This document shows, piece by piece, positions 37,795 through 40,161 of a DNA stretch of 41,651 nt; positions within the stretch are counted from its first letter, which is position 1, and every line of letters begins with the position of its first letter. The position numbers and the translations under genes are program-made. The notes under the pieces are model-generated. The model saw only the letters and a list, made by a program, of their open reading frames with translations, was not told where the DNA came from and made no database searches. The DNA lies in the NCBI RefSeq assembly GCF_003334335.1, contig NZ_QOWQ01000037.1, one strand, 5' to 3'. The DNA is from Escherichia coli. GTDB taxonomy: Bacteria; Pseudomonadota; Gammaproteobacteria; Enterobacterales; Enterobacteriaceae.

Positions 37795-38931
37795 TTACGA
37801 AAGCCCGCTCCCCGTAAGGACTGACGCCAGGTAGTTTCTGTCCATGGCTGCTTTTCGCATCTTACGTCTTAACCCTGCCTTGAATACCTTATCATTCGTC
37901 AAAATATTAATAGCAATGTGCCGTATCCCTGAAAATAATTCTGCTGCATTTCCTCTTCTTATTTTGCAGTCGTCTTCATTCATTACCACGTCCAGACGCC
38001 AGTGCAGCTTATTCTCCACATGCCAGTGGTTTCGGATTGCTGTGGCGAACTTCTCTGCGGTTAAATCAGCAGAACTGATATAATATCTGACCGTCATTTC
38101 GAGCTCTTTCTTTTGTTCTGCTATTATGGACCGAAAGGAGACTGCCACGCATAATTTCTTCAGCCCTTTCCATTCAAACGTGAAATCAATAAGTTCATCA
38201 GGGACATCGCAAACAATATGAAGACGGATTTCTTCTCTGCCGTGACTCTTTTCACTCATTGCGTAACTGTCATGCTCTGGATTATTTAATTCTTTCAGCG
38301 GAAATTTTTCCTCAAAGGCTTTATTTAGCCGCCCCTGGTTTCCTTTTACCGCGAATAAATAATCACCTCCCTGTTTTTGTATCTTCTCTGCAATATCTTT
38401 CTGGCAACCCATCGCATCAGTTGTGATGATTTTTCCTTTAATATCCAGCATGTTAAGAAGTTCTGGGATAGCTGTAATCTCATTAGATTTCTCATCCGTC
38501 CTGATCTGTCCGATGACCAGACTGTGCATTGTTGAGAACGCACTAATGACATGAATCGCTCCCCTGCGGCGACTCTTATCATAAGAATGCCGGAGCGTTT
38601 TTCCATCAATTGCAATGACGTCTTTATCATCTGAAGAATGGCAGTCACGCATCCAGTTAATAAAGCACTCGTGAAATTTTTCAGGACTGATACAGGATAC
38701 AACTCTGGCAATGGTGTCGTGAACAGGAATACCATTTTCAAAATCACCATATTGCTTCAAAAAATCGGGATGTGTTTCCCCAAAATCCTCTATATCTTCC
38801 CAGCCTTCTGCACCAGAAATAACGGCACAAATAGTCAACAGTAGAATATCCGATAACTTATGTTCCATTTTCCAGGCTTGTCTGTAATCGGGGATAATAG
38901 AAATATGTCCCATCAATTTTTTAAGTTCCAT
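37795..38931 (-). mobile_element. ydcC: H-repeat-associated protein, ISAs1-family (DDE) transposase, apparently intact
   Basis: 378-aa ORF recognised as an Rhs-associated H-rpt transposase; paralogous to the degenerate copy at 39171..40161. Confidence 0.85.
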
Positions 38932-39170
38932 TTTGTTCTCCTTAATTATGTAAGGAGTATTTGATCATGTGTAAGCAATAAAAAACAGCTTTAGGTAATA
39001 AGGAATATCTCAATTTTTAAACATAAAATGCGAATTGTTTAGTACAAAAAGTGAACTTCTGATGATCTTTCCCTGTGTTTAACGCAGCCTTCTTTCTTTT
39101 CCTCTTCACCCTTAATGTCTTTGCAATCTCTTAATAAATTCAGTGCCATCTTCTTTATTCCAGATATTAT

Positions 39171-40161
39171 TTAGGCTGCGTTTCCTCTTCTTATCCGGCT
39201 GGCATCTTCATTCATTTTTACATCTAACACCCAATGAAGACTGTGCTCGATCAGCCAGTGCGCTCTGATAGCATGTGCAAATTCTTTAGCATCCATATCC
39301 TTTGATGAAATATAATATCGGATGCTTACACCTTCTGCTGATTTATCTTCTTTCTTCTGCCTGAATGACAATGCTACACAAAGCTTTTTTAATCCCTTCC
39401 ATTCGAATTCAAAATCACAAAAGTTCAGGCGTTACGTTACTGACAATATGCAAACGTGTTTCTTTTCTTCCATGACTTATCTCCTGCGTACTAAACGAAT
39501 CGCCTTTATAATTAGAAAACACATTTACAGGAAATTTTTCCTCGAATGCATGATGTAATTTCCCCTGATTGCCTTTTACTGCCAGAAGATAATCTGCTTT
39601 TTTATCTTTGATCTTCGAAGCGATATCTTTCTGACAGCCCATAGCATCAATGGTTATCAAATTTTTCTTTAAATACAGTAGGTTAAGCAACTCTGGAATG
39701 GCTGTAATCTCATTACTTTTGGCTTCCGTTTTCACCTGCCCCAGTACAACACCATTTTCGTTCGAGAATGCACTCACCATATGGATTGCTCCTTTTCTTT
39801 TTCCCTTATCAAAGGAGCCTCTTATGGTCTTTCCATCTATTGCTATAATTTCACCATCAGTGATTTCATGGCACTCCTGCATCCATTCAATAAACATCTT
39901 TTCAAAGGCCAAACTGTCAATGTTACTCACAACGCGTGCAATGGTGTCATCGACCGGAATGCCATTATCAAAATCACCATATTTCTTTAGCCATTCAAGT
40001 CTTTCATGTCCAAAATCTTCAATTTCCTGCCACTCATCGGCACCTGCAATTACTGCACATACGGTGAGAAACAAAATAGCAGATAATTTATGTTTAACCT
40101 TTCCTTGTTGTCGTATATCAGGGGTCACTGAAATATAATCAAGCAAACTTTGAATACTCAC
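39171..40161 (-). pseudogene. yncI: Degenerate second H-repeat (ISAs1-family) transposase copy, frameshifted and truncated
   Basis: ORFs 39415..40161 (248 aa) and 39171..39371 (66 aa) both match ydcC segments but sit in different frames with an internal region missing; the 66-aa piece ends ...RIRRGNAA-stop where ydcC continues ELFSGIRH. Confidence 0.8.

Follow-up and report, generated by a model that had tools for sequence, protein, structure and literature searches.

Probable insertion of the ydcC H-repeat into an ISEc26-type element carrying yncI at the Rhs boundary beside pptA in Escherichia coli

Introduction

How did two H-repeat transposase genes, one intact and one decayed, come to lie side by side between the tip of an Rhs element and pptA on the chromosome of Escherichia coli, and are they copies of the same insertion sequence (IS)? 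The question arises in a stretch of 41,651 nt (RefSeq assembly GCF_003334335.1, contig NZ_QOWQ01000037.1), below termed the window, which is an E. coli chromosomal segment in reversed orientation compared to K-12. The gene order of the window is narZ operon - yddE - nhoA - yddH - pptA - ydcC - yncI' - yncO/ydcD - rhsE tip, and between 37400 and 41651 (4.25 kb) its nucleotide identity to MG1655 is 99.88%, the differences being 3 substitutions and a single 2-nt indel. The association of H-repeats with Rhs elements has been noted since the 1990s, and Hill and colleagues reportedly described those of RhsB, RhsC, RhsE and min 5 between 1993 and 1998. In the annotation of K-12, yncI (b1459) is a pseudogene and ydcC (b1460) an 'H repeat-associated putative transposase', while PGAP lists yncI as 'ISAs1 family transposase, frameshifted; internal stop' and ydcC as 'ISAs1-like element ISEc5 family transposase'. 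Moreover, yncI was described as a pseudogene in MG1655, in contrast to an intact gene with ISEc26-family annotation in O157:H7 Sakai (PMC11540155). H-repeats are included in the ISfinder list, yet their transposition has not been observed (PMC3032704). Work on the displacement of rhs C-terminal ends contains no mention of H-repeats or transposases (Jackson et al., 2009).

An initial annotation of the window regarded the two genes as adjacent paralogues that flank a short spacer, mark the boundary of the Rhs accessory element and might serve as substrates for deletion or rearrangement.

The two insertion sequences

According to ISfinder, members of the ISAs1 family are about 1.2-1.5 kb in length, contain one ORF, feature imperfect ends of the CAGGG type and generate target duplications of 8-10 bp. 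That both transposase genes belong to the ISAs1 family (H-repeats), run in the same direction and comprise an intact and a decayed member was confirmed by the family model NF033564, by Pfam and by the ORFs, and the names ydcC and yncI given initially are in agreement with the K-12 annotation. The element with ydcC is designated copy A, and the element with yncI copy B. The following features were assigned to copy A.

37785..39075, minus strand: copy A, complete ISEc1/ISEc5-type H-repeat IS of 1291 bp, with the ends CAGGGAAAGATCATC...CGTAATCTTGCCCTG and with full-length matches elsewhere
37795..38931, minus strand: ydcC, intact gene of a 378-aa ISAs1-family DDE transposase (ORF, NF033564, Pfam)
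39059..39075, minus strand: left terminal inverted repeat of copy A, CAGGGAAAGATCATCAG
37785..37801, plus strand: right terminal inverted repeat of copy A, reading CAGGGCAAGATTACGAA on the plus strand and overlapping the ydcC stop codon

The ydcC ORF is indeed intact with 378 aa, as initially stated. Its product covers the whole NF033564 profile (positions 1-314 of 314) with 416.5 bits at a cut-off of 70, contains the Pfam domains PF13808 (DDE_Tnp_1_assoc) and PF01609 (DDE_Tnp_1), and is identical to K-12 YdcC at 375 and to YhhI at 368 of 378 positions. The terminal repeats of copy A are imperfect and agree with each other at about 12 of 17 positions. At other chromosomal sites, including yhhI/RhsB, positions 1-1291 are matched from end to end with 96-99.8% identity, and this collinearity at high identity assigns copy A to the ISEc1/ISEc5 type. 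The boundaries were confirmed on 7 A-type copies, of which one has kept its target duplication. With a coverage of at least 80%, copy A was found in 4937 genomes, at a median of 5 places per genome (range 1-16). A promoter scan upstream of ydcC yielded 9 sites compared to 8.1 expected and thus did not exceed chance. Since the DDE transposase gene is intact and both ends are present, copy A is potentially still mobile; support for movement of A-type elements comes only from the number of 1-16 copies per genome and from the natural pair of alleles before and after insertion described below.

Copy B comprises the following features.

39076..40277, minus strand: copy B, ISEc26-type element of 1202 bp with the yncI pseudogene, equivalent to positions 1-1205 of an element of 1305 bp
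40261..40277, minus strand: left terminal inverted repeat of copy B, CAGGGCAAGATCATGAA
39415..40161, minus strand: N-terminal ORF fragment of yncI (248 aa), terminated by a +1 frameshift due to the additional C at 39423
39171..39371, minus strand: C-terminal fragment of yncI (66 aa), read in a second frame and terminated by a GAA>TAA nonsense mutation at 39173

Copy B is 98.6-98.8% identical to ISEc26 of O157:H7 (98.8% at locus L002). There, the uninterrupted element measures 1305 bp, carries the repeats CAGGGCAAGATCATGAA / CAGGGCAAGAGCATGAA and encodes an intact transposase of 390 aa, which is annotated as ISEc26-family by PGAP and reaches 415 bits on NF033564. Between the left repeat of copy B and the right repeat of intact ISEc26, 16 of 17 positions agree. 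The motifs of the catalytic region are all still readable in copy B, split over two frames, and the two yncI fragments score 293.5 bits (profile positions 1-218) and 82.3 bits (240-300 of 314) at the cut-off of 70. Compared to intact ISEc26, the lesions comprise one additional A at 40176 in the untranslated leader, the extra C at 39423, which shifts the frame after about codon 246, the G>T exchange at 39173 (GAA>TAA), a 5-bp deletion near 39110 and the absence of the last 100 bp, i.e., of 27 codons and the right repeat. By its identity, copy B is consequently classified as a remnant of ISEc26 and not as a functional member, as its end is incomplete and its ORF broken. With the frameshift, the nonsense codon, the 5-bp deletion and the lost right repeat, the element appears to be dead, and mobilization by its own ends would be impossible.

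With regard to the family features of ISfinder, a single DDE transposase was recognized by NF033564 and Pfam, and the lengths with one ORF fall into the expected range for copy A (1291 bp) and intact ISEc26 (1305 bp), copy B in the window being a remnant of 1202 bp. CAGGG ends are present in copy A (CAGGGAAAGATCATC / CAGGGCAAGATTACG) and in ISEc26 (CAGGGCAAGATCATGAA / CAGGGCAAGAGCATGAA), whereas copy B in the window retains the left repeat only.

The homology of copy B to ydcC, for which a pairwise nucleotide alignment had been proposed as a check, was upheld. The global alignment of the DNA gave 67.3% identity (708/1052) and a score of 518 compared to a maximum of 15 in 200 shuffles. Likewise, blastn revealed 67% identity over 622 nt (E 4e-42) and two further collinear blocks (70% over 94 nt and 77% over 61 nt), and the proteins share 58% identity over 248 aa in BLASTP (E 2e-104). 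The register between the copies is nearly constant, shifting from 1230 to 1232 nt, and the longest identical run common to both is 16 nt. Since the mutual identity amounts to 67%, compared to 96-99.8% between copy A and ISEc1/ISEc5 and 98.6-98.8% between copy B and ISEc26, the two are not copies of one IS. On this basis, copies A and B are assigned to two different ISs, both of the ISAs1 family.

Several details of the initial description have to be modified accordingly. The frameshift in yncI was found as claimed (+1, extra C at 39423), but the term 'internally deleted' is an overstatement in view of the register of 1230 to 1232 nt and of internal indels restricted to the additional A, the additional C and the 5-bp deletion. 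A motif reported as homologous DNA 3' of both genes, GCTGCRTTTCCTCTTCTTAT, does occur exactly twice, at 37943 and 39175, with 0 occurrences expected by chance; nevertheless, it is part of the genes and not 3' of them, as 37943-37985 lies inside the ydcC ORF, encoding ..IRRGNAA.., and the occurrence in copy B falls into the same C-terminal coding region. Finally, the alleged spacer of about 240 bp corresponds to the 218 nt that separate the ydcC ATG from the claimed end of yncI and are made up of the leader and repeat of copy A (38932-39075) and of copy B itself (39076-39149, 74 nt).

Relationship of the two elements

Copies A and B directly abut at 39075/39076 with 0 bp between them. The similarity of the window to the uninterrupted ISEc26 of O157 ends exactly at the left repeat of copy A (39075/39074), and the first bases of copy B beyond this border contain one further feature.

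39076..39085, minus strand: sole remaining copy of the 10-bp target sequence of copy A, inside copy B, GCGTTAAACA

In O157:H7 and O55:H7, an uninterrupted ISEc26 is located at yafV and contains the site GCGTTAAACA once. In strain 8479, the yafV locus features the same junction between copies B and A as the window, and the A-type element is enclosed by two copies of the site (GCGTTAAACA|A|GCGTTAAACA). Beyond the right repeat of A, this strain continues with GCGTTAAACA, followed by the remaining end of ISEc26, its right repeat and yafV, with 4 mismatches to the O157 sequence over 225 nt. Because the 10-bp sequence is duplicated in 8479 and occurs a single time in O157:H7, the two strains represent a pair of filled-site and empty-site alleles. 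The window and K-12 share the left junction with 8479 base for base, while the right repeat of copy A leads into ggcattattgtcg (ggcattattg, upstream of pptA). On the pptA side of copy A in the window, no distal ISEc26 remnant was detected apart from a chance 9-nt match of the CCCT type. When terminal repeats and target duplications were sought as suggested initially, repeats were found (both for copy A, the left one only for copy B), but no target duplication is present around either copy in the window.

These observations point with high probability to an insertion of the ISEc1/ISEc5-type IS (copy A, ydcC) into the ISEc26-type IS (copy B, yncI) 100 bp before the right end of the latter, with a later loss of the distal arm. 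As this arm of the outer IS is lost, the nesting is not recognizable from the window alone. Accordingly, instead of two copies flanking a spacer, two different and abutting ISs are present, copy A being probably nested in copy B. The description of yncI as truncated holds insofar as the last 100 bp are absent; the cause is probably the insertion of copy A with subsequent distal loss and not an internal deletion.

The absence of a target duplication around copy A in the window would also be expected if both elements had inserted side by side and the 3' truncation of copy B resulted from an unrelated deletion. This is very unlikely, since the B|A junction of the window is base for base that of the nested allele in 8479 and O157 reads straight through the position, so that an independent deletion ending at the first base of copy A would have to be a coincidence. 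Another conceivable arrangement is a composite mobile unit, which would extend from the left repeat of copy B to the right repeat of copy A and be moved by YdcC. In fact, these two repeats are 89% complementary over 18 nt and thereby fit each other better than the ends of copy A do. Nevertheless, no target duplication flanks 37785..40277, and the block conserved at both loci, yafV and pptA, extends to the left past copy B through yncO, ydcD and the Rhs tip. Moreover, copy B occupies at most 2 places per genome, and a 2493-bp unit at a new site with a flanking duplication of 8-10 bp was absent in 5426 genomes. Such a composite transposon is hence highly improbable, and it was rejected owing to the absent duplication and to the shared block running beyond the left end of copy B.

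Distribution among complete genomes

The junctions were counted by megablast with 120-nt junction queries and coverage thresholds in 5426 complete genomes; the resulting counts are approximate.

B|A junction: 2193 genomes of 5426
A|pptA junction: 2266 genomes of 5426
A|distal ISEc26 junction: 284 genomes of 5426
Uninterrupted ISEc26: 310 genomes of 5426

Copy B is a single-copy element that is present in 2529 of the 5426 genomes, and the pptA region was found in 4666 of them. The census is consistent, as the sum of 2193 and 310 comes close to the 2483-2529 genomes carrying copy B. The counts imply roughly 1900 genomes with the arrangement of the window.

The nearly constant register of 1230-1232 nt, the common strand, the common family and the collinearity almost throughout could be taken for the result of a tandem duplication, in which a single H-repeat IS was doubled and one of the two copies then diverged and decayed. 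However, the copies are only 67% identical to each other, and each has its own named counterpart elsewhere, with 96-99% identity. Copy B occurs alone and intact in 310 genomes, the 10-bp target duplication surrounds copy A inside copy B in 284 genomes, and the reading frame of copy B is interrupted by the complete left end of copy A with its terminal repeat. A tandem duplication is already contradicted by the uninterrupted and the duplication-flanked alleles and can be regarded as extremely improbable.

The census further bears on the idea that the pair acts as a substrate for deletion, which turned out to be weak considering a longest shared word of 16 nt and an identity of 67%. At most 46 of the 2529 genomes with copy B contain less than 80% of this element, and the B|A junction (2193) together with the uninterrupted form (310) accounts for nearly all of them. 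Thus, the census gives no sign of recombination between copies A and B at an appreciable frequency. A RecA-mediated deletion between these direct repeats was likewise considered and judged unlikely, with a 16-nt word as the longest shared stretch and at most about 2% of the genomes carrying copy B left unexplained by the census. Recombination among the scattered A-type copies, which are 96-99% identical, is much more plausible than between A and B.

Origin of the present arrangement

Depending on the lineage, the block of Rhs tip, ydcD, yncO and copy B, in part with copy A, is found either at yafV or at pptA. If the modules at both loci are compared, their similarity stops exactly at the outer end of copy A (37784/37785), which confirms the boundary of the Rhs accessory element beside pptA that had been proposed initially. 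An ISAs1 copy resides at this boundary regardless of the Rhs content to the left, e.g., in K-12, PK6, O157, IAI1, IMT16316 and Ecol_743. Besides, the A|pptA junction was also encountered in genomes that lack copy B at this position, e.g., in O157:H7 strain 9234. All that K-12 retains at yafV is a fragment of 280 bp from the 3' part of an A-type element (yafF), and no ISEc26 remnant was found there. The right end of A is joined to differing points on the pptA side. The window, K-12 and O157 share the junction at 37784, in IMT16316 it is located another 283 bp outward, and in Ecol_743 it falls into pptA at 37524; in IAI1, a deletion extends from inside A to 37745.

Since the left junction is that of the nested allele while the A|pptA junction occurs without copy B, the two flanks of copy A in the window would be of separate origin, the left one derived from ISEc26 and the right one from the pptA locus. 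The SNPs over six A-type copies from the pptA and yafV loci form a mosaic with no single clean breakpoint, and because of this pattern the case for a recombinant copy A is carried only by the chimeric flanks.

The probable course of events starts with an ISEc26-type element (B, yncI), which lies directly downstream of the module of Rhs tip, ydcD and yncO. An A-type H-repeat then transposed into it under formation of the 10-bp target duplication GCGTTAAACA. Subsequently, the distal piece of B and the second copy of the duplication would have been lost, and the right end of A would have become joined to the DNA upstream of pptA. The last step may have been accomplished by homologous recombination between two A-type H-repeats, of which one lay in ISEc26 and the other already next to pptA, or else by a deletion starting from the right end of A. 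The occurrence of the same block at yafV or pptA depending on the lineage, with similarity ending at the outer end of A, speaks for the recombination route. It may be added that the retention of the target duplication by only 1 of 7 A-type copies is consistent with recombination among such copies.

As an alternative to recombination of two A copies, the distal part of B could have been removed in situ by a deletion from the right end of A, i.e., by intramolecular transposition through YdcC, and the A|pptA junction would have spread to genomes without B when the DNA to the left was later replaced. The series of different pptA-side points to which the right end of A is joined between strains would fit this scenario, but the 283-bp difference among them could be an insertion or a deletion. 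Furthermore, the scenario needs a complete ISEc26 together with the Rhs module at pptA, which was encountered in none of the inspected genomes, and B is single-copy and located at either yafV or pptA. An in-situ deletion is therefore possible but rather doubtful.

Going on with recombination between A-type copies, the H-repeat near pptA may tentatively be assigned a role as portable downstream homology. Together with the conserved upstream Rhs core, it could allow an exchange of whole Rhs toxin-tip/immunity cassettes between two loci, the T6SS-linked yafV and the orphan pptA. The cassette in such an exchange would consist of the Rhs tip, ydcD, yncO and ISEc26. If this applies, ydcC of the window represents the recombination scar of a cassette transfer, and the long-noted, unexplained association of H-repeats with Rhs elements would obtain a mechanistic role. 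Apart from this, the pair of A and B is presumably selfish DNA which provides homology and breakpoints at a hypervariable Rhs locus and has no further cellular function.

Annotation and significance

The feature is an ordinary and already known one, and the nesting is a small refinement of its annotation and not a new kind of element. Its importance for biology at large is little, as both genes are annotated and the link between H-repeats and Rhs elements is old. No statement on the insertion of the IS of ydcC into that of yncI was found in the annotation and literature covered. Three corrections of the annotation are suggested, i.e., that yncI is part of an ISEc26-type IS and ydcC of a different one of the ISEc1/ISEc5 type, that these are probably nested, and that the pseudogene ends at 39076, whereas PGAP extends it to 39017 and thereby into the left end of A. 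Moreover, the empty-site and filled-site alleles constitute clean sequence evidence for the transposition of an H-repeat with a 10-bp duplication. The chimeric flanks, in turn, link the presence of the same Rhs tip/immunity module at two chromosomal loci, depending on the lineage, to an H-repeat at the breakpoint.

Comparison with known systems

The closest known counterpart is the pair of RhsE H-repeats of K-12, ydcC (b1460) and yncI (b1459), which occupies the same locus in the gene order rhsE'-ydcD-yncO-yncI'-ydcC-pptA. Copy B of the window is 100% identical to the MG1655 copy, while the YdcC protein of the window differs from that of K-12 at 3 residues (E84A, R144K, E219A relative to K-12) and ydcD of the window, unlike that of K-12, contains a +2 frameshift. 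In the annotations of K-12 and PGAP, the nesting of the IS of ydcC in that of yncI is not recorded. Among ISEc1/ISEc5 elements, the yhhI copy downstream of rhsB is collinear with copy A over positions 1-1291 at 97.8% identity, and both feature CAGGG ends and a single 378-aa ORF. They differ in their chromosomal site, and copy A lacks a target duplication in the window; in the nomenclature of PGAP, the allele of copy A belongs to the ISEc5 family, whereas other alleles are assigned to the ISEc1 family. ISEc26, as it is found intact beside yafV in O157:H7 and O55:H7, shares its left terminal repeat and the upstream neighbors yncO and ydcD with copy B, which is located at pptA instead. Nesting of one IS within another is common in enterobacterial genomes. 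Unlike nested ISs in general, the outer element has lost its distal arm in the window; nevertheless, the intact inner IS, the decayed outer IS and the target duplication in the allele of the ancestral type are shared with such systems.

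Variable Flanks and Sequence of the H-Repeat at pptA

The DNA joined to the right end of copy A, the 1291-bp ISEc1/ISEc5-type H-repeat that carries ydcC (37785-39075, - strand), differs from strain to strain when the loci of Ecol_743, IAI1 and IMT16316 (L006, L009, L010) are compared with window positions 37524-37784. Relative to the window, IMT16316 features 283 bp of extra DNA at this end, while pptA is mostly deleted there in Ecol_743 and a deletion in IAI1 runs from the IS interior to 37745. Because these right-end flanks differ among the three strains and the window, recurrent IS-adjacent deletions at the copy A/pptA boundary are suggested.

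Moreover, a target-site duplication is kept in only one of the seven full-length A-type copies whose flanks were read (from JEONG-1266, L002; strain 8479, L004; L006; L010; and the further loci L003 and L012), namely the strain 8479 copy nested in ISEc26. The left and right flanks of the remaining copies are unrelated, as would be expected if A-type copies frequently recombined with each other or deleted DNA next to them.

All three base substitutions that separate the window from K-12 MG1655 over 4.25 kb are located in ydcC (37795-38931), where each one changes an amino acid (residues 84 E/A, 144 R/K and 219 E/A); they may be due to gene conversion from other H-repeat copies. Besides, the pptA-locus ydcC of O157:H7 strain 9234 features a 64-bp expansion of eight tandem GCAGAACA units (L005, about 4953-5016), which breaks this transposase gene.

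The Rhs Module and Its Small Genes

Three features occur at and beyond the left end of copy B, the ISEc26 remnant in which copy A is nested.

Features at and beyond copy B's left end
40234-40265: near-perfect palindrome with a 14-bp stem (ATGAAAATCGTGAT / ATCACAATTTTCAT), just inside the left terminal repeat
40243-40428, + strand: yncO, small-protein gene annotated in K-12 and by PGAP
40343-40606 and 40654-40827, - strand: the two ORFs of split ydcD, with the frameshift tract at 40671-40679 (homopolymer comparison with K-12)

The small gene ydcD, located 3' of the Rhs toxin tip, is presumably its immunity gene. In the window a homopolymer of nine T (+ strand), versus seven nucleotides in K-12, shifts the reading frame by +2 and splits the gene, whose K-12 product is 160 aa long. 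The tract seems to vary repeatedly, since PGAP likewise flags a frameshifted ydcD in O157:H7 JEONG-1266 and strain 8479.

The start of yncO lies within copy B, about 35 nt inside its left terminal repeat, and the gene reads outward past the IS boundary, overlapping the 3' end of ydcD in antisense; it is therefore a chimeric IS/flank ORF. On the strand of the transposase gene, the palindrome was picked out as terminator-like, and it may shield the ISEc26 transposase gene against read-through transcription; copy A contains no such palindrome.

The module of Rhs tip, ydcD, yncO and ISEc26 adjoins yafV-ivy-fadE, near T6SS genes, in some lineages (JEONG-1266, strain 8479) and pptA in others (window). 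Both loci are essentially never occupied in one genome (median of one copy B per genome). At the K-12 yafV locus, the yafF pseudogene (L007 5099-5378) is a 280-bp 3' piece of an A-type H-repeat that stops 12 nt before the IS end, and it looks like a leftover at the site where other strains hold the T6SS/Rhs/ISEc26 block.
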